A stretch of DNA of 64,000 nt from the NCBI GenBank assembly GCA_023267215.1, contig JAHFNS010000002.1, forward strand, positions 128,892 through 192,891. Direction: 5' to 3'. Both the position numbers and the translations under genes were made by a program. Shown piece by piece: positions 3,191-61,618 of the stretch. Within the stretch, counting starts at the first letter, position 1, and the number at the start of each line of letters is the position of its first letter. The notes below the pieces were generated by a model that saw nothing but the letters and a program-made list of their open reading frames with translations, ran no database searches and was not told where the DNA came from. The DNA is from Candidatus Nomurabacteria bacterium (GTDB lineage: Bacteria > Patescibacteriota > Minisyncoccia > Phycocordibacterales > UBA9973).

Positions 3191-4000
3191 TTATGACAGT
3201 GCCCTATATTTTTTAATTTCTTCAAAAAGTTTTCTAGCTTCCTCTTTTGGATTATCTGCAAAAATGATACCCCTAGAAGAATTTATTATTAATCCTAATC
3301 CTTCTTTATTTAATCCTGATTCAATGACTGATTTAACATCCCCTCCTTGTGCCCCTATCCCCGGAACAAGGAAAGTCATATCAGGGACGAATGAGCGAAT
3401 CTTTTTCATTTCTTCTGGATAAGTCGCCCCAACCACTAACATACAATTATTATTTTTATTCCAAATATTTGAAACTTTTTCCGCCACAATTTGCCAAAGT
3501 TTTTTATCTTCAATTTCTAAATCTTGGAATTCTCCTGCTCCAGAATTTGAGGTCCTACAGAGAATTATAGAAGTTTTATCTTTTCTATCTAAAAAAGGTT
3601 TCAGAGCTTCCTCCCCTAAATACGGATGCAAAGTTATCGCATCAAAATTTAACCAATCAAAAGCCATATACACATAGCCATTATTAGTATTACCAATGTC
3701 CGCACGTTTCGCATCTAGGATAGTAAAAATATCTGGATATTTTTGTTGTAAATATTCCATAGTCATTTTTAACTCTTTTAGGCCTTGGTCTCCTCTAGCT
3801 TCGTAAAAAGCAATATTTGGTTTATAAGCAGCCACATATTCATTTGTTTCTTCTATAATATATTTATTAAATTCAAATTGTGGAAATTCTAATTTTAAAA
3901 ATCTTTCAGGAATTTTAGAAAAATCTGCGTCTAAACCTACGCATAAAAGTGAATTAATTTTCTTTGCTCTTTCGTTGTATTTTTCTAAACTATTCATCAT
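3191..4000 (-). CDS. pyrF: Orotidine 5'-phosphate decarboxylase (long/type 2 form)
   Basis: LCVGLDAD, DAKRADIGNT and VPGIGAQGG motifs; last gene of the pyr operon. Confidence 0.85.
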   Translation of the reverse strand: MMNSLEKYNERAKKINSLLCVGLDADFSKIPERFLKLEFPQFEFNKYIIEETNEYVAAYKPNIAFYEARGDQGLKELKMTMEYLQQKYPDIFTILDAKRADIGNTNNGYVYMAFDWLNFDAITLHPYLGEEALKPFLDRKDKTSIILCRTSNSGAGEFQDLEIEDKKLWQIVAEKVSNIWNKNNNCMLVVGATYPEEMKKIRSFVPDMTFLVPGIGAQGGDVKSVIESGLNKEGLGLIINSSRGIIFADNPKEEARKLFEEIKKYRALS

Positions 4001-4004
4001 AAAT

Positions 4005-4676
4005 TTACCTCACCCCTTTGCCCCTCTCCTTATTAAGGAGAGGGGTTGGGGAGAGGTTCTTCTCTATTAAATACTTTTTTCCATGACCAACAGTAATATT
4101 TATCGGCACACCTGCTTTACACAAAGGACAATCCTCGGCAGAATATGTCGGTATGTAAAGATCAGAAAGTGCCCCAAAAGGCACTTTAAAAATATCTATA
4201 TCCAAATCTTTATTTTTATTTACCAAAGCACAAGCTCCAATAATGTTTCCACCAGCATTTTTTACCGCTTCTATAACTTTCAAAACAGACCCACCAGTAG
4301 TGACAATATCTTCAACTATCAAAATATTTTTATTATCTTCTACATATTTTTCATATCCACGAGTAAAAATTTGTTTACCCTCAAGACTTTTTTCAGTATA
4401 TATTCCTAAAACTTCCTTACCATACATTTCACTTAAATGCCCTGCGACATATTGAGAAAGAATAATTCCACCCAAAGCAGGACCCACAACCACTTCAATA
4501 TTTTTATCTTTATATTTTTCTGCTAATATTTTACATATTTCAGAAGTTTCTTTTGTATGTGGATATAAAAAATCTTTATTTACATAAGTGTCAAAATGTA
4601 ATCCTGAAGTACCCACAAAATGCCCCTTCGGTAATATCGCTCCAACTTTATTTAAAATATCAAGAATTTCATTCAT
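4005..4676 (-). CDS. pyrE: Orotate phosphoribosyltransferase
   Basis: PRTase PRPP-binding motif ILIVEDIVTTGGS. The C-terminal 17 aa are encoded by a palindromic repeat element (see repeat copy A). Confidence 0.85.
   Translation of the reverse strand: MNEILDILNKVGAILPKGHFVGTSGLHFDTYVNKDFLYPHTKETSEICKILAEKYKDKNIEVVVGPALGGIILSQYVAGHLSEMYGKEVLGIYTEKSLEGKQIFTRGYEKYVEDNKNILIVEDIVTTGGSVLKVIEAVKNAGGNIIGACALVNKNKDLDIDIFKVPFGALSDLYIPTYSAEDCPLCKAGVPINITVGHGKKYLIEKNLSPTPLLNKERGKGVR
4007..4058. repeat. Palindromic repeat element copy A (CCTCACCCC box + CCCCTCTCCTT/AAGGAGAGGGG hairpin)
   Basis: ACCTCACCCCTTTGCCCCTCTCCTTATTAAGGAGAGGGGTTGGGGAGAGG. It overlaps the pyrE 3' coding end and supplies a GGTGAGG SD-like sequence 8 nt before the pyrF ATG. 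Confidence 0.7.
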
Positions 4677-15037: not shown

Positions 15038-15148
15038 TGACGGAGGCCGTTGTCGGGATTACGGTTATCACGATTGTCGTTGCTCACGTTGAACTGACCA
15101 TCGTTATTGCGGTTCATGTTCATGGCATTGCCATCCGAATCAAGGGCC
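15038..15148 (-). repeat. DGR template repeat (TR)
   Basis: 111 nt matching VR 15407..15517 except at 11 positions. All 11 are TR adenines (coding strand). Encodes Asn-rich NAMNMNRNNDGQFNVSNDNRDNRNPDNGLRQ; invariant by inference. Confidence 0.8.
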
Positions 15149-15393: not shown

Positions 15394-16146
15394 TTAGAAA
15401 TCTACTTGACGGAGGCCGTGGTCGGGATAACGGTAATCACGATAGTCGTAGCTCACGTCGAACTGACCATCGTTATTGCGGCTCATGCTCATGGCACCGC
15501 CAACCGAATCAAGGGCCGCAAAACGAGTAAGCCCTTTGACGTCGTACATTTTATTAGTTTCAGTACGATATCGGAAAGCAGAGATAATACCTTCTTTTGG
15601 AATCATGAATTTTATATTTTCATTAATTCCATCATCATAACTTTTGTTAAGCAAATCCGGTTCATCCCCACCGACATGACATGTTGCGTAATCACTCGTG
15701 GGACGTACCTGCTGTTCCTTAATGGATTCGGCAATGTTGTCATAATATTTCCAAACCGCATTATTGCCAAATTTTTTTGCATAGGCTTCAAAATATTGAT
15801 CTTCAGTAATATCAGTAAAGATATATTCCAGCCGTTTCATTTTTTCGTTCCATGCAGGAAGCACTATTTTTGACCAATCAATAGTACGACTGAAGAATTT
15901 TTTGTAAAAAACTTCAATTCGTCTTTTTTCTTCAATCCATGGGTCAATTTCAATTCCAAAAATTTCTTTGCAAAAATTTTCGGTAAGTTTTTCAACTTCA
16001 TGATCTGGACTTAAAACAAAGTGATTGGCACTTTCAAATGAAAGCTTTCCACTATCTCCCAAAACACGAGTGATTGTTCCGGCAATTTTAAAGCCGATTG
16101 CAACTAACTGACCTGAGGTGGCAGGTGTAATAACTTGATTTGTCAT
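15394..16146 (-). CDS. DGR variable target protein (C-terminal VR, probable C-type-lectin-like fold)
   Basis: 250 aa. The last 37 residues (GAMSMSRNNDGQFDVSYDYRDYRYPDHGLRQVDF) are encoded by VR; Tyr/Ser/His/Asp replace the TR Asn codons. No signal peptide seen. Confidence 0.8.
   Translation of the reverse strand: MTNQVITPATSGQLVAIGFKIAGTITRVLGDSGKLSFESANHFVLSPDHEVEKLTENFCKEIFGIEIDPWIEEKRRIEVFYKKFFSRTIDWSKIVLPAWNEKMKRLEYIFTDITEDQYFEAYAKKFGNNAVWKYYDNIAESIKEQQVRPTSDYATCHVGGDEPDLLNKSYDDGINENIKFMIPKEGIISAFRYRTETNKMYDVKGLTRFAALDSVGGAMSMSRNNDGQFDVSYDYRDYRYPDHGLRQVDF
15407..15517 (-). repeat. DGR variable repeat (VR)
   Basis: See TR. The 3' (IMH-like) end is GC-rich: CGGCCTCCGTCA. Confidence 0.8.
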
Positions 16147-23899: not shown

Positions 23900-24424
23900 A
23901 TGATTCTATCTATAATAGCTGCCATTGGTAAAAATAATGAGATAGGAAAAAAGAATGAGCTTCTTTGGAATTTACCTGCGGATATGAAACATTTTAAAGA
24001 AGCAACCTCAGGCCACACAGTTATAATGGGACAAAAGACTTTTGAATCCATTGGCCATCCTCTTCCAAATAGAAGAAACATTGTTTTAACTCAAGATAAT
24101 TTATTTCAAAGAGAAGGAATAGAAATAGTCCACTCTCTAGAAGAACTTGATGCTTTGCTTAAGACCTCACCCCAACTCTCTCCAGGAAAGGAAGAAAAAG
24201 ATGAGGAGGTTTTTGTAATTGGAGGTGGACAAATATATAAATTATTTATAGATAAAGCAGATAAACTTTACATCACTCACGTCAATGCATCTTTCCCTGA
24301 CGCTGACGCATTTTTCCCAGAAATTATTCCAATAGTCTTTCTAGAAACTTCTAGAGAAGAACATAAAAAAGACGAAAAAAACGCATATGACTATGCGTTT
24401 ACTACATATACTAGATTTCAATAA
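23900..24424 (+). CDS. folA: Dihydrofolate reductase
   Basis: ILSIIAAIGKNNEIGKKNELLWNLPADMKHFKEATSGHTVIMGQKTFESIG N-terminal DHFR signature. Contains an in-frame degenerate repeat copy (24164..24200). Confidence 0.8.
   Translation: MILSIIAAIGKNNEIGKKNELLWNLPADMKHFKEATSGHTVIMGQKTFESIGHPLPNRRNIVLTQDNLFQREGIEIVHSLEELDALLKTSPQLSPGKEEKDEEVFVIGGGQIYKLFIDKADKLYITHVNASFPDADAFFPEIIPIVFLETSREEHKKDEKNAYDYAFTTYTRFQ
24164..24200. repeat. Degenerate palindromic repeat copy E inside folA (in frame)
   Basis: ACCTCACCCCAACTCTCTCCAGGAAAGGAAG encodes TSPQLSPGKEEK. The same frame and peptide theme as the RluA insert (TSPPSSPSKGEG). Confidence 0.4.
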
Positions 24425-32900: not shown

Positions 32901-33473
32901 CTCTCGAAGCACAAGGATAGAACCATCATTATTTAATTTGATTAGTTTGGAAGCTTTTGCTTCAATCTCCCCTCCGTCTATATAAAGATCCACTTTCTCA
33001 CCAAAGTATTTTTTCGCTTCTTCAATATTTTTAGCCGGAGGCAACGCCTCCGTATTTGCAGAAGGAGCAATAAGTGGGCCAGTTTTTAAAAGAAGATTTC
33101 TAAGTGATTTGGGAAAAGGCAATCTGAAAGCAAAAGGATCCAAAACAACACTTACTGGACCTGGCCAATAATTTTCTAAAATTTTCTTTTTTTCTTCTGA
33201 TAAAATAATTTCAAATTTTTCGAGTTCTTTAATATCCCCAATCAAAATAATACACGGTTTATTTGAATTTCTTTTTTTTATTTCATAAATCCTTTCTACT
33301 GTATTTTCTTCCAAAGCTTTCCCCACTATTCCATAAATAGTATCCGTCGGCATGACAACCACTCCATCTTTTTTTAATACTTTTATCAAATTTTGATTAT
33401 TCCAAATATTTTCTTGCATATTATTTAAATTTAAAATTCCTATGACCATTATCTTTGCTAGAAATTTGAACAA
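32898..33473 (-). CDS. tsaC: L-threonylcarbamoyladenylate synthase (YrdC/Sua5 family)
   Basis: VVMPTDTIYGIVG motif and YrdC fold length; overlaps the tsaE 3' end. Confidence 0.75.
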   Translation of the reverse strand: MFKFLAKIMVIGILNLNNMQENIWNNQNLIKVLKKDGVVVMPTDTIYGIVGKALEENTVERIYEIKKRNSNKPCIILIGDIKELEKFEIILSEEKKKILENYWPGPVSVVLDPFAFRLPFPKSLRNLLLKTGPLIAPSANTEALPPAKNIEEAKKYFGEKVDLYIDGGEIEAKASKLIKLNNDGSILVLRE

Positions 33474-33888
33474 ATTTAGAATGTTTCGGCATAGCCTTTG
33501 AAATATTTTCTGGCCATTCGATAAAAACTAAATGCTCGTCGTTACCTATAATTTCTTCCCAACCTAAATGTAATAATTCCTTTTCACTTTCTAGACGATA
33601 CGCATCTATGTGAAAGAAAAATTTATAATTAGACCCCCTCGCCCTTTGGGCACTCCCCCGACGCCTCGCGAGAGAGTACTTTTTCATAATGACATAAGTC
33701 GGGCTAAAGACTCTCTCTTTTATTCCCAGATGTTTAGTAACTAATTTTGTGAAAGCTGTTTTGCCAGCACCTAAGTCTCCAGAAAGACCAACAACCAAAG
33801 CACCTTTGTGCTTTTTCTTGCCTTTCAATATCTTATCCAAAAATGTTTTCGCAATCTTTTCAGTTTCTTTTATATTTTTTGAAAGCAT
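33421..33888 (-). CDS. tsaE: tRNA t6A biosynthesis ATPase TsaE (YjeE)
   Basis: LSGDLGAGKT Walker A, SPTY and HIDAYRL motifs. Contains an in-frame GC-rich insert (33633..33680). Confidence 0.7.
   Translation of the reverse strand: MLSKNIKETEKIAKTFLDKILKGKKKHKGALVVGLSGDLGAGKTAFTKLVTKHLGIKERVFSPTYVIMKKYSLARRRGSAQRARGSNYKFFFHIDAYRLESEKELLHLGWEEIIGNDEHLVFIEWPENISKAMPKHSKFVQISSKDNGHRNFKFK
33633..33680. repeat. GC-rich palindromic in-frame insert within tsaE
   Basis: ACCCCCTCGCCCTTTGGGCACTCCCCCGACGCCTCGCGAGAGAGTAC encodes SLARRRGSAQRARGSNYK between the conserved SPTY and HIDAYRL blocks; contains the CTCGCGAG palindrome. Confidence 0.45.
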
Positions 33889-38452: not shown

Positions 38453-38496
38453 ACTCACCTCACCCCTAAGCCCCTCTCCTTGTAAAGTAGAGGGGT
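38453..38496. repeat. Palindromic repeat element copy B (intergenic)
   Basis: ACTCACCTCACCCCTAAGCCCCTCTCCTTGTAAAGTAGAGGGGT. Confidence 0.65.
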
Positions 38497-38504
38497 ATTA
38501 AAGA

Positions 38505-40208
38505 CTAGGCAAATTCCTGTTGATAGCATTTCACACAATAAACTATCTCTGGTCCATCTGGGGCATAAGGTGTATAAATGTTTATATTACATTTTGCACA
38601 GGTTCTATGATACATTTTAGGTTTTGTCATTCTCTCAAATCTTTCATTTTCTCTGCATTTAGGACATTCATGTGGGACTGGTAAATTCATCTTACGAAGT
38701 AAATCTAATTCTCCTTTTACTATTTTGTATCCATTTTTACATTTTTCACATTCAATTATCTCATCCAAAACTTTTTCATCTATATCTTTTATTGTATCTG
38801 GCAAAGAATCTGTTTTCTTTGTAGTTTTATAAATTGTGCCTTCTCTGTCTTCCCAAAAATAACCCTCTTCTAAAACTTCTCCCTTTGTTTTTGGAAAAAA
38901 TTTAATTGCATTTGATTTATTGTATGGGAACTTACTAAATTCCGGTGGAAAAAATTCTCCATAGTAAAATTTCCGTCCAAGCTTGTCTATGTATGGATTC
39001 TTTTTCATATCTTCAATAATTTTATCTCTGAGTTTTTCATATTCCTCTTTTGTATACTCTTTATTTAAAATACAGTATTTTTTTCTTTTTAAATTTACAC
39101 AACCAAAATTATTTTTACCAGTGATATTCCATGAACAGTATTGCAAATCCAAACTCTCTGACCAACAATAATTGGAGAATAATATTAGATTGGTGCCCTC
39201 TCCTACTCCCGTACTTTCATAAATTTGGCTTACATTGTTTCCCCAACCAGAATAATCCCAGCAATCTTTAGCTGACGGGACAGTAATAAATTGAGTCCAT
39301 TTACAATCTTCGGCACCACCAACCATATAAACTTCCTTTGAATTTTTAGAACTGTAAACATCTTCACCTGTCACATTTAAATTTTTTGAGTTTCCATTAT
39401 ACTCTCTATATGGCAAGGTATTCCAAAACTCATGTACTTTCTCTTTAAGAGACTGTAACGACATCCAAGAATCAAGTTTCAACTCTTTGACTTTTTCTTG
39501 ATATTCTTCTTTTGTGTACTTAATATTAAAAATATAATAAGAAGCACCTCGCAGATTTACACATCCAATACAATTAGTGCAACTTGAACAATTGCGAGAA
39601 AACCATACATTCACACAATCACGACATTCATATGAGAAAAAAGTTTGATAACTTTTATTAACCCCAACACATTCATAACATAATTCTGAATAAAACCCTC
39701 GTAAACAATCTAAACTCGATTTTAGATTATTTAATAATGAGGAATAGTAGACATTCTCACAATAATCTGCCCAAAAAGTTAAATAGCAATCTTTAGACCA
39801 CCCTATACCATTAGAATATTCGGAATTCTTTATAGTTAAATGATCTGCTTCAAGAAGAGCAAAAGGAGTTTTATCAAAAAGTTTTTTTAATTGTTCTAAA
39901 AAGGGTTTGCTTGGATCATAATCCATTGCGTATTCTGTCCCATCCCAACTATCTCCCCACCAACAAGTCGGGCAATAACCTATCACTTCTTTATCTGGTG
40001 GATAAACAGAAACAGATCTAGCTCCACATTTATCACAATTGCGCCAATATAGATTCCAAGTATTCTGAAAAGAGATACGTCTAATAAATCGACATTCCGG
40101 ACACCAAGTCGGAGGAGGCACCTTCATTTTTTCATAAAAATTAAAATCCTCCGGCTCAATTGTGAAGTCTTGCTTACAGTTCTGGCAATTTCTAACTTCA
40201 GTTTGCAT
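38505..40208 (-). CDS. Cysteine-rich protein with multiple CxxC zinc-ribbon-like motifs and an internal duplicated module
   Basis: 567 aa. There are 4 CxxC pairs at each terminus and two internal repeats ending ..C.NL(R/K)...Y.I.N..YTKEEY(Q/E)K. Function unknown. Confidence 0.5.
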   Translation of the reverse strand: MQTEVRNCQNCKQDFTIEPEDFNFYEKMKVPPPTWCPECRFIRRISFQNTWNLYWRNCDKCGARSVSVYPPDKEVIGYCPTCWWGDSWDGTEYAMDYDPSKPFLEQLKKLFDKTPFALLEADHLTIKNSEYSNGIGWSKDCYLTFWADYCENVYYSSLLNNLKSSLDCLRGFYSELCYECVGVNKSYQTFFSYECRDCVNVWFSRNCSSCTNCIGCVNLRGASYYIFNIKYTKEEYQEKVKELKLDSWMSLQSLKEKVHEFWNTLPYREYNGNSKNLNVTGEDVYSSKNSKEVYMVGGAEDCKWTQFITVPSAKDCWDYSGWGNNVSQIYESTGVGEGTNLILFSNYCWSESLDLQYCSWNITGKNNFGCVNLKRKKYCILNKEYTKEEYEKLRDKIIEDMKKNPYIDKLGRKFYYGEFFPPEFSKFPYNKSNAIKFFPKTKGEVLEEGYFWEDREGTIYKTTKKTDSLPDTIKDIDEKVLDEIIECEKCKNGYKIVKGELDLLRKMNLPVPHECPKCRENERFERMTKPKMYHRTCAKCNINIYTPYAPDGPEIVYCVKCYQQEFA

Positions 40209-40212
40209 AGTA

Positions 40213-40965
40213 TTATTTTAACACCTCTATAAACTCTTTGGGTAGTGGTGATTCAACTTTTATTATTTTTCCTTTCAAATCTTTAAAGACAATAGATTTA
40301 GCATGTAGGGCCAATCTATCTATACCTTTAGGAGAGGGGTGCCCTCCATTATAAAGTGAATCACAAACTACTGGATGATTTATAAATTTCATATGCACTC
40401 GAATCTGATGTGTACGACCCGTTTTCGGACGCACTTCTAAATAAGTAAATTTAGCCCCCTCTCCTTTAGAAGGAGAGGACGGGGGTGAGGTAAATCTTTT
40501 CAAAACAGTATATTCAGTGATAGCTTCTCGAAGTTCCCCTCTCGCCCCACGTCCTGCTAACCTTTTACGAAAATCATTTCCACTTCGTCCAATTGGTTTT
40601 CTTATAGTTCCTCTATCATTTTTCATAGAACCTAAAACAATTGCATTATAAACTTTTTTTATTTCTCTTCCTTTAAATTGTTCTTTCAAAAATTCATAAG
40701 CTTTTTGATTCTTTGCTAAAAGTAAAACACCAGAAGTATCTTTATCTAGGCGATGTACTATACCTGGACGAGGAAGAAGCTCAAAAAATTTATCGTCATT
40801 TTTTATCTTAATTGGTTCTCCAACATTTTTTGTTTTAGGATAATTTTTTAAAAACCAATCAGAAATTGTTTTTTCTTTACTTCTACCATCTGGATGCACC
40901 GAAACACCAGAGGGTTTATCTATGGCTAAAATATTCGAATCTTCATAAAGTATTTTAATTTTCAT
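40213..40965 (-). CDS. RluA-family pseudouridine synthase carrying an in-frame repeat insertion
   Basis: NILAIDKPSGVSVHP and HRLDKDTSGVLLLAKN catalytic motifs; TGRTHQIRVH. A 14-aa TSPPSSPSKGEGAK segment is encoded by repeat copy D. Confidence 0.8.
   Translation of the reverse strand: MKIKILYEDSNILAIDKPSGVSVHPDGRSKEKTISDWFLKNYPKTKNVGEPIKIKNDDKFFELLPRPGIVHRLDKDTSGVLLLAKNQKAYEFLKEQFKGREIKKVYNAIVLGSMKNDRGTIRKPIGRSGNDFRKRLAGRGARGELREAITEYTVLKRFTSPPSSPSKGEGAKFTYLEVRPKTGRTHQIRVHMKFINHPVVCDSLYNGGHPSPKGIDRLALHAKSIVFKDLKGKIIKVESPLPKEFIEVLK
40453..40494. repeat. Palindromic repeat element copy D (reverse orientation, in frame inside the RluA-family gene)
   Basis: GCCCCCTCTCCTTTAGAAGGAGAGGACGGGGGTGAGGTAAAT is the reverse complement of the family consensus. 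Confidence 0.65.
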
Positions 40966-42895: not shown

Positions 42896-43329
42896 TTGTT
42901 TATTTTATCTAAATATCTTTGTAATATCAAAGCAGCCGCAGAAGCATCTATCCTTCCACTTTTGATTTGTTTCACCTTACTATGCACCTGAGACTGATTT
43001 AAACTTTTTTTAGTGTCAGTTCCCTTGCGAGCTTCAACAGATGTTAAAAATTCTTTTTCTTTATGAACTGGTAAATTAAATTTTTCTTTAAGTTCTGAAA
43101 TAAAGACCTCAATCCTTGCAGACAATGTATTTAATTTTCCAGAAAAATCTACTGATTCTCCTATCACTATTTGGGTAACATTTTCTGTTTTTATTATTTC
43201 TTTAAGCCTATCAAAAGTATCCACATTATTAAGTATGATTTCCTTTGGGAAAGCTAAAACACCATCTTCGTCTGAAATAGCTACACCTATCCTCTTTGTC
43301 CCGTAATCTATACCCAAAAATCTTTTCAT
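42892..43329 (-). CDS. ruvX: Holliday-junction resolvase-like protein YqgF/RuvX
   Basis: LGIDYGTKRIGVAISD N-terminal motif. Confidence 0.8.
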   Translation of the reverse strand: MKRFLGIDYGTKRIGVAISDEDGVLAFPKEIILNNVDTFDRLKEIIKTENVTQIVIGESVDFSGKLNTLSARIEVFISELKEKFNLPVHKEKEFLTSVEARKGTDTKKSLNQSQVHSKVKQIKSGRIDASAAALILQRYLDKINK

Positions 43330-43375
43330 ATTTAAGATATTAGCACAAAAATTTTACTTCTGGTATAATATAAAA

Positions 43376-43645
43376 ATGATGGATCAATTTTATACACAAT
43401 CGTTTTTTCCTATTAATAATAACTGGGCAATTCTTGGTTTTATAGTATTAGGTCTTTGGATCTTGTTTTGGAAAGGTTGTTCGTTGTGGATAGCTACTAA
43501 AAATGACAAGAAGTTGTGGTTTGCGATACTTCTTATTTTTAATACTATTGGTATTTTAGAAATTATCTTCATTTTCTTTGTTGCAAAAAAGAAATGGAGT
43601 GACATAAAAGAAATATTTTCTAAAACAAAACAAACTGAATTATAA
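43376..43645 (+). CDS. Small membrane protein (2 TM), hypothetical
   Basis: 89-aa ORF with two hydrophobic helices, followed by a strong terminator. Confidence 0.4.
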   Translation: MMDQFYTQSFFPINNNWAILGFIVLGLWILFWKGCSLWIATKNDKKLWFAILLIFNTIGILEIIFIFFVAKKKWSDIKEIFSKTKQTEL

Positions 43646-43670
43646 TTTTTAATTAAAAAACATTATTTAA

Positions 43671-43708
43671 AATACCCAGCTACTAGCGAGTAGCTGGGTA
43701 TTTTATTT
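43671..43708 (+). terminator. Rho-independent terminator (14-bp stem)
   Basis: AATACCCAGCTACT-AGCG-AGTAGCTGGGTATT followed by TTATTTTA. Confidence 0.6.
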
Positions 43709-43727
43709 TAAAGATTTAAATATTTAT

Positions 43728-44252
43728 TTGTGGTATACTAGATTAGTGGAACAGTATGAAAGAAATCCAAATACTTTTTGCATTATCTGTAAAAAAGCAA
43801 TTTACAGAAAACCAAGCCAAATAAAAAGAAATAAAAGTGGAGTTTTTTGTAGTATGGATTGCTATGGCATTAGTCAAAGAAAAGAAAAACCATGTATAGT
43901 TTGTGGAAAAATGATCATGTCAAAATTTAACAAAAAGACTTGTAGCAGAAGTTGTGCAAATATACATAGAGCTGGAATAAAATATAAGATTGGAAGTCCA
44001 CGAAGTAAAGTAAAATCTCAACAAGCTGTAAAGATAAAGCTGCTTAAAGAAAGAGGAAAAAAATGTGAAAAATGTGATTATAATAAATATGAGATATTAC
44101 AAGTTCATCATAAAGATAGAAATAAAAATCATAATGATTTAGAAAATCTTGAATTAATTTGTCCAAACTGTCATTATGAAGAACATTTCTTAAAAAAGAG
44201 TTGGTTGAGAAATAAGATTGAAAAAGAAGAAAAAAAGGATATACTAGATTAA
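43728..44252 (+). CDS. HNH endonuclease with N-terminal Cys-rich zinc-ribbon region
   Basis: CEKCDYNKYEILQVHHKDRNKNHNDLENLELICPNCH is an HNH motif; several CxxC pairs lie upstream. It ends 14 nt before tRNA-Ser. Confidence 0.65.
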   Translation: MWYTRLVEQYERNPNTFCIICKKAIYRKPSQIKRNKSGVFCSMDCYGISQRKEKPCIVCGKMIMSKFNKKTCSRSCANIHRAGIKYKIGSPRSKVKSQQAVKIKLLKERGKKCEKCDYNKYEILQVHHKDRNKNHNDLENLELICPNCHYEEHFLKKSWLRNKIEKEEKKDILD

Positions 44253-54279: not shown

Positions 54280-54726
54280 ATGAATAAAAATAAAAAAATT
54301 ATTTTTGGAGTAATAGGAGTTGTAATTTTAGCAGGAGTATTTTATGGAGGAATGATTTATGGAAAAAACCAAACTTCCACAGGAGGAATTAACGCAAATA
54401 TGCAAAATCGTGTAGGACAATTTGGTGCTGGTAATAGAAATAATAGAACAACAGGAGGAGGATTTGTCTCTGGAGAAATTATTTCAAAAGATGATAAAAG
54501 TATCACAGTTAAAATTATGAATAATGATCCATCAGCAACTAATACAAATACTGGATCAAAAATTATTTTCTTTGATACGAGTACAACAATCTCAAAAATG
54601 GCTGCTGGGTCTTTAAATGATTTGGTAGCAGGCACACAAGTTTCAATCACAGGATCTGCAAATACTGACGGTAGTGTGACGGCAAAAACTATCCAAATAA
54701 GGCCACAGACAAAACTCAATAAATAA
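54280..54726 (+). CDS. Secreted/membrane-anchored hypothetical protein
   Basis: 148 aa with an N-terminal TM/signal and a Gly/Asn-rich low-complexity segment. Confidence 0.45.
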   Translation: MNKNKKIIFGVIGVVILAGVFYGGMIYGKNQTSTGGINANMQNRVGQFGAGNRNNRTTGGGFVSGEIISKDDKSITVKIMNNDPSATNTNTGSKIIFFDTSTTISKMAAGSLNDLVAGTQVSITGSANTDGSVTAKTIQIRPQTKLNK

Positions 54727-54728
54727 AT

Positions 54729-54767
54729 TCACCTCACCCCTACCCCTCTCCTTAATAAGGAGAGGGG
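54729..54767. repeat. Palindromic repeat element copy C (intergenic)
   Basis: TCACCTCACCCCTACCCCTCTCCTTAATAAGGAGAGGGG, immediately after the 54280 gene stop. Confidence 0.65.
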
Positions 54768-55641: not shown

Positions 55642-55777
55642 ATCATTTAGTGTGGAGGTTTTATTCTTTTTTAAGATTAACTCTTCCACAGCTTTTCAAA
55701 GTTATTGATATTTTTAGATAAATGTGGATAATTTTGAAGAGCTAAAAAACTCTTTTAAAATAGTAATAATAAAAATT

Positions 55778-58759
55778 ATGAATAAAAAAATAAAACTGAC
55801 AATATTAGGTATCTTAACTCTCGTTGGGCTTTTTACTAGTATAAATATAACTTCTGCTGGTAGAACTCCAATAGTTACTTGCAACAGTGCTACTATTTAT
55901 GGAACTGTCTGGCCAAACAATACTACAGTGAGTGCTTGGTTTGAATGGGGAAATAACATATCAACAGTTCAAAATGGAGGTGGAACTAAAATTGGATTTC
56001 AACAAGTTAATAATACCACTGAACTCAGTGCAAATTTGTCAGGACTAAATCAAAATACAACTTATTATTACAGATTGGTTGTTCAAAGTGGTAGTGATTA
56101 CATTCCTGCCACAACCGAATCCTTTTCTACTACTACTTGCCAAATTGTAAACCCTCCCGTCAATGGTGGCTGGAGTGACTGGAGTTCAAAAGATAATTCT
56201 TGTGGTGTTTCCGGAGTTCAAACTCGCTCTTGTACAAACCCTACTCCAGCTAATGGTGGAGCATATTGTTCCGGTCCTTCTACTCAAACATATACAAATC
56301 CACAATGTCCTATTATAAATACTCCCGTCAATGGAGGATGGAGTGACTGGAGTTCAAAAGATAATTCCTGTGGTATTTCCGGAGTTCAAACTCGTAGTTG
56401 TAATAACCCAACTCCAGCTTACGGAGGAGCATATTGCTCAGGCCCTTCTTATCAATCATATACAAATCCAGTATGTCCTAATTTAATTTTACCTCCTGTT
56501 GTTTCATTAACAGCAACTCCGACATCAGTATCTTACGGTGGTTCTTCTACTTTATCTTGGAACTCAACAAACAATCCATCATGTATCGCCAATGGTGGTT
56601 GGTCAGGGCAAAAAGCAATGAGGGGCAATGAGTCAACTGGCGCTTTGAATTTCAATACTACTTATAATATTACATGTACAAACAGTGCAGGCTCAGACAG
56701 TAAATCAGTCACAGTGAGTGTTTTACAACAACCGGTTATTCAAAATCCAAGTGGAACAATCTATGCCTCTTCTTGTTTTATACAACTTAATCAATCTACT
56801 TGTGAATCAAAAGTTTCTTGGAATACTTATAATTTAACTCCCGGAGCCTTGACAGCTGTCACCAGAAGCAATCCACCCGTAACAGTATTTACCACGACAT
56901 CCGGAAATAATTTAAGTGATTATATAAATTATGGAAACAGTATTTATTTCTTATATCACAATCAGCAACAGTTGGCATCCGCCCCAGTAAATGCCTCTTG
57001 TGTCTCTGGCACTACTTATATTGGAGGTATTTGTATAGCTCCTGTTGTAAATTATCCTGTAAATGGTGGTTGGGGACCTTGGAGTTCTAAAGATAATTCT
57101 TGTGGAGCGTCTGGAATCCAAATCCGTAGTTGTAATAATCCTAGCCCAGCAAATGGTGGACTAGATTGTTCTGGTTTATCTTCTCAATCATATACAAATC
57201 CGGCTTGTCCTATTACCCAAACTCCCGTCAACGGTGGTTGGGGAGCTTGGAGTTCTAAAGATAATTCTTGTGGTATTTCCGGAGTTCAAACTCGTAGTTG
57301 TAATAATCCTTATCCAGCAAATGGCGGACTAGATTGTTTAGGTACCTCTTCTCGAACTTATACAAATCCACAATGCCCTATCACTCAAACTCCCGTAAAC
57401 GGTGGTTGGGGAGCTTGGAGTACAAAAGATAATTCTTGTGGAGCTTCTGGGATTCAAACTCGTAGTTGTAATAATCCTAGTCCATCAAATGGTGGGCTAG
57501 ATTGTTCAGGAGCTTCTACTCAAACATACGTAAATCCTCAATGTTCTTATCCTGTTTACACTTGCCAAGATTATTCCGCTACAAATTATGGAGGTTCTTT
57601 ACCTTGTAATTATTATCAAGCTCCTTTAGTTTGCCAAGATCCAAGTGCTACCAACTACAGAGGTGGTTTACCTTGTAATTATTACAATAATTATATTCAA
57701 ACCTGCCAGGATCCTTCTGCAACAAATTATCGTGGGACATTGCCTTGTAATTATTATTACCAACCTATTTTAACTTGCCAAGATCCTTCTGCCTTAAATT
57801 ACAGAGGAACACTTCCTTGCACGTATAATACATATATTAACAATAAACCAACTGTAAATATTTCTACAGATCAAAGTACTGTATCCTTTAATGGAACTAC
57901 TTTTGTTCGTTGGTATACAACCAATGCAACCTCTTGTTATGCAAGTGATGGATCTATCGGTTGGGCAGGAGCAAAAAGCATTGGACCAGGAAGTTTTTAC
58001 ACAGGATCATTAACTTCTGGTAAAACTTACACTATTACTTGTACAAACAGTTTTGGGTCTGCGACTGATAGCACAAATGTATCTGTTCGTTCTCAAACCA
58101 CAACAACAATCACAACCAGACGTGCTCCAACTTCTCTCGTACTTATTACCTCTTCTGTAGATCGTAATCAACCAATAGTGCCTACCATAGACAATACTAG
58201 ACCAAAACCAGGAGATGAAATCAATTACACCGTAAATTATCAAAATATCGGCACAGGATCTATCACTAGTCTCAATCTAAGAGTAGACCTCCCTTACGAA
58301 GTAAATTACATATTGTCTAATCCAAACAATCCAACCATTTCTGGTAATACTTTAATTTTCAATTTAGGAACCCTAAAAGCAAACGGACAAGGCACGGTGA
58401 CAATAAGAGTGCGAGTACGAGAAAACATACCAGCCGGAACAAATTTAAATTTCCCTGCTACTTTGAGTTATGTTGACCCAGGAGGTCAACCACAATCAGT
58501 AATGGCTAATGTCTCTGCTCAAGTTTGGAGTGAACCACCAATAACACAACTGGTAAATCCAAACGACAAAGAAACAGTACAATTAGGAGCACTCGCTTTC
58601 CTGTTTGGTAACAGTTTTGTTCCAAGCACACTAATAGGATGGCTTCTTATTATTCTATTAATTACTCTGGTTGTTTTAGCCGTAAGAAAAGCGTACTACG
58701 GACCAAATGCAATTTTTGTTCCACAAACTTTAGAAAAAAGTAAAAAAATAAATGGATAA
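55778..58759 (+). CDS. Large surface protein with 5 thrombospondin type-1-like repeats, Cys-rich 24-aa repeats, Ig-like domains, a DUF11-like domain and a C-terminal TM anchor
   Basis: Five repeats of VNGGW(S/G)xWSSKDNSCG.SG.QTRSCNNP.PANGG..CSG.S.Q.YTNP.CP (WSxWS and CS.TCG-like core). Four repeats of CQDPSATNYRG.LPCNYY. DUF11-like segment (INYTVNYQNIGTGS...GTVTIRVRV). The start is probably the Met at 55778. Confidence 0.7.
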   Translation: MNKKIKLTILGILTLVGLFTSINITSAGRTPIVTCNSATIYGTVWPNNTTVSAWFEWGNNISTVQNGGGTKIGFQQVNNTTELSANLSGLNQNTTYYYRLVVQSGSDYIPATTESFSTTTCQIVNPPVNGGWSDWSSKDNSCGVSGVQTRSCTNPTPANGGAYCSGPSTQTYTNPQCPIINTPVNGGWSDWSSKDNSCGISGVQTRSCNNPTPAYGGAYCSGPSYQSYTNPVCPNLILPPVVSLTATPTSVSYGGSSTLSWNSTNNPSCIANGGWSGQKAMRGNESTGALNFNTTYNITCTNSAGSDSKSVTVSVLQQPVIQNPSGTIYASSCFIQLNQSTCESKVSWNTYNLTPGALTAVTRSNPPVTVFTTTSGNNLSDYINYGNSIYFLYHNQQQLASAPVNASCVSGTTYIGGICIAPVVNYPVNGGWGPWSSKDNSCGASGIQIRSCNNPSPANGGLDCSGLSSQSYTNPACPITQTPVNGGWGAWSSKDNSCGISGVQTRSCNNPYPANGGLDCLGTSSRTYTNPQCPITQTPVNGGWGAWSTKDNSCGASGIQTRSCNNPSPSNGGLDCSGASTQTYVNPQCSYPVYTCQDYSATNYGGSLPCNYYQAPLVCQDPSATNYRGGLPCNYYNNYIQTCQDPSATNYRGTLPCNYYYQPILTCQDPSALNYRGTLPCTYNTYINNKPTVNISTDQSTVSFNGTTFVRWYTTNATSCYASDGSIGWAGAKSIGPGSFYTGSLTSGKTYTITCTNSFGSATDSTNVSVRSQTTTTITTRRAPTSLVLITSSVDRNQPIVPTIDNTRPKPGDEINYTVNYQNIGTGSITSLNLRVDLPYEVNYILSNPNNPTISGNTLIFNLGTLKANGQGTVTIRVRVRENIPAGTNLNFPATLSYVDPGGQPQSVMANVSAQVWSEPPITQLVNPNDKETVQLGALAFLFGNSFVPSTLIGWLLIILLITLVVLAVRKAYYGPNAIFVPQTLEKSKKING

Positions 58760-60100: not shown

Positions 60101-60679
60101 ATGATTGGAAGCATAAAAGGGAAAATAATCTTAAAAACTGACAAGTTTTTGATAGTGGAAACAGGTGGCGTTGGTTATAAAACAAACGTCTCACCAGATA
60201 CTTTATCTAAATTAAAAAATCCAAAAGATGACGTGTTTTTCTTCATACATACTCACGTAAGAGAAGATGCTCTTGATCTTTATGGGTTTTTAAATCAAGA
60301 AGAATTAGAATTTTTTGAAATGCTTATAAATGTCTCCGGCATCGGACCAAAAGGCGCACTAGGTATTTTAGGAATCGCTTCTATCGAAACATTAAAAAGA
60401 GCAATAGGCACAGGAGACACAGCATACCTCACAAAAATTTCTGGCATCGGTAGAAAAACTGCAGAAAAAATAGTTATTGAACTTCGAGACAAAATGCAAA
60501 ATAAAAATACAGAAGAAAAAGGTGGCACTTCCCTTCGAGATGAGCTCGATGCTCTAGAAGCATTGAAATCTCTCGGCTATTCTCAAAACGAAGCCCGTGA
60601 TGCTCTAAAAAAAATTTCTCCCGACGCAAATACGAATACAAAAATCCGTGAGGCTCTAAAAATTTTAGCTAATAAATAA
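60101..60679 (+). CDS. ruvA: Holliday junction DNA helicase RuvA
   Basis: MIGSIKGKI...VETGGVGY OB domain, two HhH motifs (GIGPKGA, GIGRKTA) and a C-terminal domain III. The internal Met at 60101 is taken as the start. Confidence 0.8.
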   Translation: MIGSIKGKIILKTDKFLIVETGGVGYKTNVSPDTLSKLKNPKDDVFFFIHTHVREDALDLYGFLNQEELEFFEMLINVSGIGPKGALGILGIASIETLKRAIGTGDTAYLTKISGIGRKTAEKIVIELRDKMQNKNTEEKGGTSLRDELDALEALKSLGYSQNEARDALKKISPDANTNTKIREALKILANK

Positions 60680-60775
60680 AAGATAAAATAATGCTTTTTT
60701 CGGCATACGCAATATTAATTTCGTAAACCATTGTCAGGTTCGAGTGCGAGCCGTGAAAAAGTATTATTTTATCTT

Positions 60776-61618
60776 TTATTTCCCAAAAAAATAATTTTTC
60801 AAACCACTAAAAGTAAGATTAGCCATATTGGTATACATTTGGTGACGTGCGAGACTGTTACCAAATCTATAAATATAACCATATTCTATAAGTACAGATT
60901 TTACACTCTTTAAAAGAGTGCCGTTAGAACCTAAAGCGATCAAACTCTGGTCAGGGGTCAACCCTTCTAATTCTTTTTCATAAGTACTTGGAATATACTT
61001 TTTTGAAATTTGTGAAAAAATGCTTTTCGCTAATTTTGTACTCTCTTTAGAATTAACCATCTGTTCTTCTGGCATATAAACAGTAAAACCTTTATAAATA
61101 CCTTTAGCCCATGTATTCTCACGTGGATAATCATTAAAATGAATATGTATGACAGCATCTATTTTATTTTCATCTGCCCATTTATTTATGCCATACAACC
61201 TAAGAGCAACATCTTCGGTAGCTTTATTGTGTACCACTTCTATTTTTTTAACAAAACTTCCATTATTAATTTTATCTTGCATATTTTTTTTAGCATTTTC
61301 TTCAAAAGAAATAATCTCTGGTTGATGAAAAGAAAAATAATTAGTAAATTCTGTCGTATAACCAAGAACATCGCGAGTAATATAAACTTTAAATCTTTTA
61401 TCCTTTTTGAGGATATTATAAATTTTTGTTGCCAATACTAAATTCATATCTGCTTCTTTTAGGTTTCCATATTGTGAACCCCATATTTCATCATCATGTC
61501 CAGGAACTAAGAGAATTTTAATAGTATCTTTTTGTGTTGAGACAACAGCAAAAACATCATGTGGTACAAGAAAAATTAAGACAAAAAATATGAACAATGT
61601 GATGAAAATCTTTTTCAT
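60776..61618 (-). CDS. N-acetylmuramoyl-L-alanine amidase (Amidase_3/CwlD-like)
   Basis: Signal peptide, then ILLVPGHD...E..NL.LA..I...L......VYITRD and IHFN motifs of zinc amidase_3. Confidence 0.7.
   Translation of the reverse strand: MKKIFITLFIFFVLIFLVPHDVFAVVSTQKDTIKILLVPGHDDEIWGSQYGNLKEADMNLVLATKIYNILKKDKRFKVYITRDVLGYTTEFTNYFSFHQPEIISFEENAKKNMQDKINNGSFVKKIEVVHNKATEDVALRLYGINKWADENKIDAVIHIHFNDYPRENTWAKGIYKGFTVYMPEEQMVNSKESTKLAKSIFSQISKKYIPSTYEKELEGLTPDQSLIALGSNGTLLKSVKSVLIEYGYIYRFGNSLARHQMYTNMANLTFSGLKNYFFGK

Follow-up and report, generated by a model that had tools for sequence, protein, structure and literature searches.

Triplex-type palindromic repeats of the BoxC/PIT/TM kind in a Candidatus Nomurabacteria genome and a proposed link to DUF559 nucleases

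We describe a family of short G/C-rich palindromic repeats in a 64-kb stretch of the genome of a Candidatus Nomurabacteria bacterium (64,000 nucleotides of contig JAHFNS010000002.1; hereafter, the window), a member of the Candidate Phyla Radiation (CPR). The five sequences, denoted A to E (Table 1), appear to be four intact copies and one decayed copy of a repeat of the BoxC/PIT/TM kind (PIT, potential intrastrand triplex; TM, triplex motif). All five are solo copies, and we propose that such repeats are spread by DUF559 (YcjD-like) endonucleases, the genes of which are flanked by motifs of the same architecture in other genomes. Taken as a whole, this reading seems to us fairly probable; toward its mechanistic component, spread driven by DUF559, we lean slightly.

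Architecture of the repeats and their relationship to BoxC/PIT/TM

Read with the C-rich arm first, the intact copies have the general form CCCCTCTCC(TT), loop, (AA)GGAGAGGGG, 2-5 nt, GGGGTGAGG(TA). Copies A to D contain an 8-11 bp hairpin, CCCCTCTCC(TT)/(AA)GGAGAGGGG, the stem of which is perfect over 9-11 bp in A, C and D. The hairpin loop, given as 4-11 nt in the preliminary description of this DNA, is 3 nt once the full 11-bp stem is counted, and 7 nt if 9 bp alone are counted. With loops in lower case, copy A reads CCCCTCTCCTT-aat-AAGGAGAGGGG-caaa-GGGGTGAGGTA on the minus strand, copy B(-) CCCCTCTAC-tttacaa-GGAGAGGGG-ctta-GGGGTGAGG with a single stem mismatch, copy C(-) CCCCTCTCCTT-att-AAGGAGAGGGG-ta-GGGGTGAGG, and copy D(+) CCTCTCCTT-tag-AAGGAGAGG-acggg-GGTGAGGTA. 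Copy A is two-sided, with an extra mirror arm at its opposite side. Copy E retains GGAGAGAG-tt-GGGGTGAGG and has lost the C-rich arm, that is, the hairpin partner.

These sequences had been perceived as a box followed by a hairpin. Both parts are real, but the three-arm BoxC/PIT/TM architecture had gone unrecognised: the "box" is the complement of the third, G-rich arm GGGGTGAGG, and this third arm is the mirror image of the purine arm. Under the mirror rule, G stands opposite G, and A or T opposite A, as in a purine-motif (reverse-Hoogsteen) third strand. A single strand could fold as a hairpin with the third strand in its groove, i.e., as a class II purine-motif intrastrand triplex. A scanner that encodes the mirror rule alone, without any sequence (9-nt arms, at most one mismatch), yielded five matches in the window, which correspond to copies A, B, C and D, and none elsewhere; there are five matches from four copies because A scores on both strands. 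Rule-conforming triads number 9-11 in A (on both strands), C and D, and 9 in B, which carries one Watson-Crick mismatch; up to 11 consecutive triads are perfect. With the scan relaxed to 8-nt arms and less constrained loops, the five matches of the window stand against none in its 100 dinucleotide shuffles.

The sequence words themselves are strongly enriched in the window, the G+C content of which is 30-37%. The box CCTCACCCC has five exact matches versus 0.09 expected, a count reached by none of 100 dinucleotide shuffles, and CCCCTCTCCTT with at most one mismatch has 8 matches versus 0.57 expected. Taken together, the shuffles for the exact box, the C-arm and the triplex scan rule out a chance origin of the copies. 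All five sites that had been reported, four full and one degenerate, are present. They extend over 50 kb on both strands, non-tandem, in mixed orientation and at intervals of 2-34 kb, as expected from their earlier characterisation as dispersed elements, and the irregular spacing and mixed orientation rule out a CRISPR array. The copies are 37-52 bp long, and a repeat search of the window joined A, B and C into one family with 73-100% identity. A search of Rfam with copies A-E gave no match at the gathering threshold or at E <= 1. Folding as single-stranded DNA was scored for the hairpin part alone, triplexes lying outside the ViennaRNA model. Copies A (-20.1 kcal/mol, z -5.7 against shuffles), C (-13.3 kcal/mol, z -5.6), B (-9.3 kcal/mol, z -3.3) and D (-10.0 kcal/mol, z -2.7) fold better than shuffled sequences, in agreement with the hairpins originally proposed; by the same measure, copy E does not fold (z +1.0).

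BoxC and PIT repeats were reportedly studied by Bachellier in the 1990s and by Hoyne and Maher in 2000. The Escherichia coli motif TM_ECO, CCCTCNCCC-N3-6-GGGNGAGGG-N3-GGGNGAGGG, was earlier called BoxC and later PIT; there are 23 copies in E. coli K-12 and 3,610 in 262 proteobacterial genomes, and cyanobacteria have many related G/C-rich motifs (Holder et al. 2015, PMC4666352). The isolated TM_ECO strand forms a stable triplex in vitro, and TM_ECO loci are unusually variable between strains (PMC4666352). The window repeats have the same succession of C-rich arm, loop, purine arm, short loop and mirror G-rich arm that characterises the class II purine motif, and, like the E. coli repeats, are dispersed in either orientation and show local presence/absence variation among relatives. 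The 8-nt cores GGAGAGGG and GGGTGAGG are common to the window and E. coli copies, and the E. coli hrpB-mrcB copies (...CACCCTCACCCTAACCCTCTCCCTCAAGGGAGAGGG...) and the window elements (...CACCTCACCCCTACCCCTCTCCTTAATAAGGAGAGGGG...) share one layout and one set of cores, with the arms offset by one base.

The differences are equally clear. The arms in the window are CCCCTCTCC, GGAGAGGGG and GGGGTGAGG, compared with CCCTCTCCC, GGGAGAGGG and GGGTGAGGG in E. coli, a shift of one base; the second loop is 2-5 nt rather than 3 nt; the stem is lengthened by AA/TT pairs, with the third arm lengthened to match; and the host is an AT-rich CPR bacterium. Furthermore, three of the five window copies lie in coding sequence, whereas all E. 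coli K-12 copies are intergenic. The published TM_ECO regular expression, with its arms offset by one base and its second loop fixed, has no match in the window, where loop 2 is 2-5 nt. Because this strict pattern fails, we judged membership in the family by the architecture and the shared cores, and on these grounds we are nearly certain that the window elements are a new member of the BoxC/PIT/TM kind rather than TM_ECO proper. Neither the lineage nor the gene-internal positions were described by Holder et al. (2015); the novelty lies in these two aspects and in the link to a nuclease.

Occurrence across phyla and covariation of the arms

The family is not specific to the window genome; its words occur in many phyla. 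We searched 596 Gb of sequence, with one genome per species, for the box and the C-arm (CCTCACCCC-N1-6-CCCCTCTCC), and at least 120 loci matched, with about 100 chance matches estimated for this amount of sequence. The phyla among the matches listed include Chloroflexota, Planctomycetota, Bacteroidota, Cyanobacteriota, Pseudomonadota, Acidobacteriota, Armatimonadota, Gemmatimonadota and others. The purine arm GGAGAGGGG, which was not part of the query, lies at most 24 nt away in 126 of the 156 matches listed (86 exact and 40 near-exact variants).

Other purine/pyrimidine hairpins from these loci (n = 42) provided a set of variant stems in which the third arm changes along with the stem: the purine arms GGAGAAGG, GGGGAGGG, GGGGAAGG and AGAAGGGG are accompanied by the mirror third arms GGATGAGG, GGGTGGGG, GGATGGGG and GGGGTTGA, respectively. 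The mirror rule is perfect in 14 of the 42 instances, compared with 2 for a direct-repeat rule and with a mean of 1.3 and a maximum of 5 for permuted stems. The mirror arm is therefore constrained, and this covariation argues independently for the three-arm reading.

Association with DUF559 nucleases

Clustering of the ORFs (open reading frames) in the motif-selected loci, at least 120 in number, returned mainly generic ABC transporters. DUF559 was first met in locus L013, where the ORF for methionyl-tRNA synthetase (MetRS) runs through a small DUF559 domain bracketed by motifs. With tblastn, DUF559 was found in 6 of the 120 motif-selected loci listed, representing six lineages, and all six genes are bracketed by inverted motifs; all six belong to PF04480, a PD-(D/E)XK-fold protein, and not to the Y1 transposases.

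As a control for selection bias, loci were chosen by protein alone, with four DUF559 sequences as queries against metagenome contigs (n = 80 loci). In a structure-only scan of these loci, 124 motifs were found in the 37 kb within 250 bp of DUF559 (3.34 per kb), and 11 in the remaining 226 kb (0.049 per kb), an approximately 69-fold difference; 64 of the 80 loci carry at least one motif and 39 carry motifs on both sides. In the usual layout, one motif ends 2-100 nt 5' of the start codon and an inverted motif lies over the last codons of the gene; because of this overlap, DUF559 proteins end in ...SPSP-like tails. The two motifs that flank a single DUF559 gene are 83% identical, compared with 72% across loci (permutation p <= 2e-4). 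The arm types vary from locus to locus, and the mirror rule is obeyed in each. In three loci (L151, L158 and L159), the DUF559 genes are flanked by exactly the arm type of the window, and two of these metagenome loci, L151 and L158, contain candidate parent units of the form motif-DUF559-motif, none of which is present within the window.

The association extends to cultured organisms. In E. coli K-12, a motif-like hairpin lies across the stop codon of ycjD, and TM_ECO no. 9 is located 168 bp downstream; given 23 motifs in 4.64 Mb, chance alone would produce about 0.004 such coincidences. Near-identical inverted motifs, both perfect, abut the pDEIPR03 DUF559 gene of Deinococcus proteolyticus, and motifs are present at both sides of the DUF559 gene in Neisseria gonorrhoeae. 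In the plasmid pAQ6 of Picosynechococcus sp. PCC 7002 (L211, 20770-21705), DUF559 is flanked by short CCCCC-loop-GGGGG-nn-GGGGG(G) units, which fall outside the scoring of the triplex scanner; this suggests that some of the abundant cyanobacterial G5 repeats are a miniature version of the three-arm design. DUF559, which has a conserved E-x-D-G motif in its putative catalytic site, matches the structural-genomics structure 3HRL in PDB and, more weakly, the "Mobile intron protein" 3R3P (E 6e-5). The literature that we searched, mostly outside subscription journals, contained no paper linking DUF559/YcjD to BoxC or triplex repeats.

A separate observation concerns the L013 locus, which comes from a betaproteobacterial metagenome-assembled genome. 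Here, a full motif-DUF559-motif cassette (L013:2124-2636) is embedded in-frame and free of stop codons inside the MetRS ORF, between the catalytic body and the C-terminal tRNA-binding domain.

Gain and loss at orthologous sites

The preliminary description raised the possibility that the element can lie in-frame within coding sequence and suggested a search for orthologs that lack the insert. Such orthologs were found for the RluA-family pseudouridine synthase, dihydrofolate reductase (DHFR), the pyrE tail and the copy B spacer, so that the same sites are occupied in some genomes and empty in others. Named homologs of the window RluA and DHFR come from Ca. Nomurabacteria, Paceibacterota and Patescibacteria, and an in-frame insert of the type TSPQPSPxKGEG is present in some of these RluA and DHFR relatives and absent from others. 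In RluA, the window sequence VLKRF-TSPPSSPSKGEGA-KFTYLEV corresponds to VLKRF-ENKKI-KFTYLEV in the closest relatives, and several other homologs carry TSPQPSPYKGEG(A/V) at that loop; at the DNA level, the motif of about 39 nt aligns with 15 nt (ENKKI) in the closest relative. The DHFR relatives have either no insert or an intact TSPQPSP[SD]KGEG, compared with the decayed TSPQLSPGKEEKDEE in the window.

The pyrE homologs listed end at query residues ~193-212, mostly 199-208, and the last ~15 residues of the window protein, NLSPTPLLNKERGKGVR, therefore form an extension that copy A has written. Copy B is missing from the orthologous spacers (7 nt and roughly 40 nt) of two syntenic relatives, L205 and L207, in which RluA, an ORF of ~570 aa and L19 follow the order of the window and no motif precedes L19. 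Scans of the relatives found no motif in 31 kb of the closest one and a single motif, in RluA, in 20.7 kb of another. The presence and absence of the elements at orthologous sites imply that gain and loss take place on the time-scale of these lineages.

The RluA homologs of Paceibacterota also contain a second, unrelated family of in-frame inserts of ~25-30 aa (NFSSCALPRVRGGTLGDKNF...), which occupies two different loops (alignment columns 108-134 and 230-265; window site 40771-40800, minus strand). The segment NDDKFFELLP of the window RluA is a possible scar of this family, and the family itself suggests another palindromic element writing into CPR proteins. Another region with the appearance of a foreign insert is a 50-nt G/C-rich island (33630-33679) that encodes SLARRRGSAQRARGS within an otherwise AT-rich TsaE-like ORF (33421-33888, minus strand); the scanner detects no triplex motif in it.

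Gene context and local effects

Table 1. Copies of the repeat in the window, parts of copy A, and genes that overlap or adjoin the copies
Feature	Position	Strand	Evidence or remarks
Copy A, two-sided triplex motif	4007..4058	.	Triads on both strands, 9-11 perfect; folding
Copy A, C-rich box CCTCACCCC	4008-4016
Copy A, hairpin arm CCCCTCTCCTT	4021-4031
Copy A, hairpin arm AAGGAGAGGGG	4035-4045
Copy A, second mirror arm GGGGAGAGG	4048-4056
Copy B, intergenic triplex motif, one Watson-Crick stem mismatch	38457..38495	-	Triplex scan, folding
Copy C, intergenic triplex motif	54730..54767	-	Triplex scan, terminator scan, folding
Copy D, triplex motif antisense within RluA-family pseudouridine synthase ORF	40456..40492	+	Triplex scan, RluA alignment
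Copy E, decayed, within DHFR	24164..24200	-	Box and purine-arm complement kept at 24165-24183
pyrE-like phosphoribosyltransferase ORF	4005..4676	-	C-terminal NLSPTPLLNKERGKGVR*, from copy A; homolog ends
Orotidine monophosphate decarboxylase (pyrF) ORF	3191..4000	-	ATG 6 nt after GAGGT of copy A
RluA-family pseudouridine synthase ORF with copy D	40213..40965	-
Dihydrofolate reductase (DHFR) ORF with copy E	23900..24424	+

In a pyr operon, copy A forms the final 17 codons of the pyrE-like ORF, as had been proposed and as the reading of the ORF upholds; the stop codon also comes from A. An exact look-up of the pyrE-like protein returned no record. On the minus strand, copy A terminates in GAGGTAAATTT right before the pyrF ATG, and its GAGGT is a possible Shine-Dalgarno (SD) sequence of pyrF. 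A minority of the window ORFs have any SD-like word. Upstream of the long ORFs, such a word is mostly missing and several of these ORFs have TATAAT-like hexamers directly 5' of the ATG, which hints that leaderless or SD-independent initiation is frequent among the window genes.

Copies B and C, described as intergenic and adjacent to gene ends, are indeed so placed. Copy B lies between the stop codon of a 567-aa ORF (38505-40208) and the L19 gene. The L19 ORF is listed from TTG 38448, and alignment with two relatives, together with the gene call of a relative, favours ATG 38409; judged from these alignments, the start is most likely this ATG, ~48 nt downstream of copy B, in which case copy B would not be the ribosome-binding site of L19. 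Nor is copy B terminator-like on the sense strand, where the terminator scan found no T-run. Copy C begins 4 nt past the stop codon of ORF 54280-54726(+), and on the plus strand its hairpin followed by TTTTGTCTTCT resembles an intrinsic terminator: a 12-bp stem with 7 GC pairs precedes the T-rich tail TTTGTCTTCT, and a promoter-like site comes next. Copy C looks like the terminator of the preceding gene, as far as its sequence indicates. Copies A and D, judged by eye, have no T-run.

Copy D encodes the RluA loop TSPPSSPSKGEGA and copy E encodes the DHFR segment TSPQLSPGKEEKDEE. When the motif is read in the C-rich direction, no frame contains a stop codon and the encoded peptides are of the Pro/Ser...Gly/Glu type, whereas the G-rich direction has a TGA in one frame, a difference with which the orientation of D and E, the internal coding copies, agrees.

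Proposed mechanism and alternative explanations

In many phyla, genes for DUF559 endonucleases (YcjD-like, with a Vsr/PD-(D/E)XK fold) lie between two inverted motifs, and we propose that the motif family provides their cognate end-repeats. The motif, folded or as a duplex, would be recognised by this nuclease and copied through its action, in the manner of the REP-associated tyrosine transposase (RAYT) for repetitive extragenic palindromic (REP) sequences, or of a parent element for a miniature inverted-repeat transposable element (MITE). The copies in the Ca. Nomurabacteria genome would be solo, non-autonomous units of a selfish dispersed repeat that persist at places where they do little harm, namely, between genes, at the 3' end of a gene and in in-frame surface loops. 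In the broadest form of this proposal, the BoxC/PIT/triplex repeats and DUF559 would constitute a single, previously unrecognised, cross-phylum selfish system analogous to REP-RAYT, in which the nuclease recognises the three-armed, triplex-capable fold and orphaned repeats have been written into essential proteins of reduced CPR genomes; on this claim, we are evenly undecided.

Several observations weigh against DUF559-driven spread of mobile repeats. The 64-kb window contains no DUF559 gene or remnant detectable by tblastn and a six-frame profile search (best E = 0.5), which is why we regard its copies as solo. Among the 80 protein-selected DUF559 loci, 16 have no motif by the scan criteria, and in a minority the motif polarity is reversed, so that both "box-inside" and "box-outside" arrangements occur; such dual polarity does not fit transposon ends of fixed polarity. 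The element at the RluA site takes the place of 15 nt and is not a clean insertion, and neither the RluA nor the L19 site shows a target-site duplication when aligned with the empty orthologous sites. The RluA and DHFR inserts, being shared by relatives, could reflect old, vertical inheritance in place of repeated gain. DUF559 occurs in only 39 of 72,556 plasmid records and 2 of 50,697 phage records, and this rarity leaves the route of cross-phylum spread unexplained. Finally, a stable triplex of the E. coli motif was seen neither in duplex DNA nor in vivo, and the motif showed no promoter or terminator activity in earlier work and no tie to known mobile elements (PMC4666352).

Alternatively, DUF559 could be a free-standing homing-type endonuclease gene that invades existing motif doublets, the repeats being its targets rather than its ends and arising or spreading by other means (e.g., replication or repair at structured DNA). 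Gene-free doublets are frequent in E. coli as well as among the scanned loci, the flanking motifs occur in both polarities, and there is the distant similarity of DUF559 to 3R3P. However, flanking pairs are more alike than random pairs, and the 3' motif regularly covers the gene's final codons, which points to co-evolution as a unit and away from invasion at random. Such a scenario would also leave the spread of the solo copies unexplained, and we consider it unlikely.

The elements could also be selected regulatory signals of the host, such as terminators, mRNA-stabilising hairpins, ribosome-binding sites or intercistronic processing sites. Copies A and B do lie at cistron junctions, copy A places GAGGT 6 nt ahead of the pyrF ATG, and copy C, just past a stop codon, makes a good terminator-like hairpin whose tail is T-rich and which is followed by a promoter-like site. 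A regulatory role is difficult to reconcile, however, with copies D and E, which are inside coding sequence, with copy B, which has no T-run and lies ~48 nt from the likely L19 start, with the empty sites in close relatives and with the fact that most genes in the window have no SD. The mirror third arm and its covariation would remain unexplained, and the E. coli motif lacked promoter and terminator activity in the earlier tests (PMC4666352). Altogether, this explanation appears improbable.

Considerably less probable still is a lineage-specific classical MITE moved by ordinary transposase cut-and-paste, its likeness to BoxC being a convergence of G/C-rich palindromes. The repeats share with MITEs their short length, palindromic nature, dispersal in both orientations and presence/absence polymorphism, but the recurrence of 18-27 nt words and of the three-arm layout in many phyla, the adherence of the third arm to triplex rules with covariation, the missing target-site duplications at RluA and L19, and the lack of a transposase among the 10 ORFs scanned near the copies all speak against such an origin. 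It is scarcely credible that protein-level selection for TSPQPSPxKGEG as a useful flexible linker (Pro/Ser...Gly/Glu) produced the DNA palindrome as a by-product: one peptide in one frame does occur in RluA and DHFR of several relatives, but B and C encode no protein, copy A is read in another frame and direction, conservation is seen in the DNA hairpin and mirror arm but not in the loop residues, and the DHFR copy in the window is decaying.

Comparison with other repeat and nuclease systems

The preliminary description likened the family to REP or MITE elements. This is apt for a small dispersed repeat, but neither a target-site duplication nor a transposase-type terminal repeat, which would be expected of a MITE, was found for the window copies. 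The family also resembles REP/REPIN-RAYT systems: in both cases, short imperfect palindromes occur as singles and inverted doublets, the repeats far outnumber the gene, and a single small nuclease gene is located between inverted copies of the genome's own repeat. Nevertheless, the GTAG/CGTC head of REP is found in none of the window copies, and the flanked gene is the PD-(D/E)XK/Vsr-fold DUF559, as opposed to the HUH Y1 (IS200/IS605-like) transposase of RAYT; in addition, there is an extra mirror third arm, and the same repeat words recur in different phyla, unlike the species-specific words of REP.

Two other systems resemble the repeats or the nuclease in part. The Rickettsia palindromic elements (RPE), reportedly described by Ogata and colleagues in 2000 as palindromic selfish DNA in protein genes that encodes short hydrophilic segments tolerated in loops, are likewise found in-frame in conserved protein genes and are absent from orthologs, as are the elements here in RluA, DHFR and the pyrE tail. 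RPE are reportedly 100-150 bp long, compared with 37-52 bp for the elements described here, and confined to Rickettsia; they are not known to have a triplex-type third arm or to be related in sequence to the window elements. I-Bth0305I (PDB 3R3P), a Vsr-fold homing endonuclease encoded by a selfish gene, has a catalytic domain weakly similar to DUF559; it was named "Mobile intron protein" by the depositors of the structure, whereas DUF559 genes are free-standing. The target of I-Bth0305I is its own, long and asymmetric, and we know of no repeat family associated with this enzyme.

Other features of the window

At ~43300-43750, gene orientation turns from minus to plus, and the cumulative GC skew is lowest at 40-44 kb; the origin of replication probably lies in this region. 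A large ORF (55724-58759, plus strand) consists of modules repeated in tandem, 168 nt and 69-72 nt long, in which Cys codons are conserved, and likely encodes a repetitive surface protein. Two further repeats are unrelated to the triplex motif: a 111-nt direct repeat with 90% identity (15038-15148 and 15407-15517) and a 26-nt inverted repeat with 96% identity between convergent genes (60674-60699 and 60756-60781).

Implications

BoxC/PIT repeats have been known since the 1990s, to our knowledge without agreement on their origin and function, and we likewise know of no assigned role for YcjD/DUF559, a very widespread protein. If the two belong together, both questions would be testable by E. 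coli genetics and with the purified 117-residue protein, and the main by-product of the present analysis is this testable hypothesis on the partner of the whole BoxC/PIT/TM family. If it is true, repeat-nuclease partnerships would gain a new class, one that may use a non-B DNA fold as its unit of recognition. For the window itself, the analysis accounts for odd G/C-rich islands, and for C-terminal extensions and loop inserts in CPR proteins, as repeat-derived, which bears on gene calling, on protein-family alignments and on judging which CPR "insertions" are functional.

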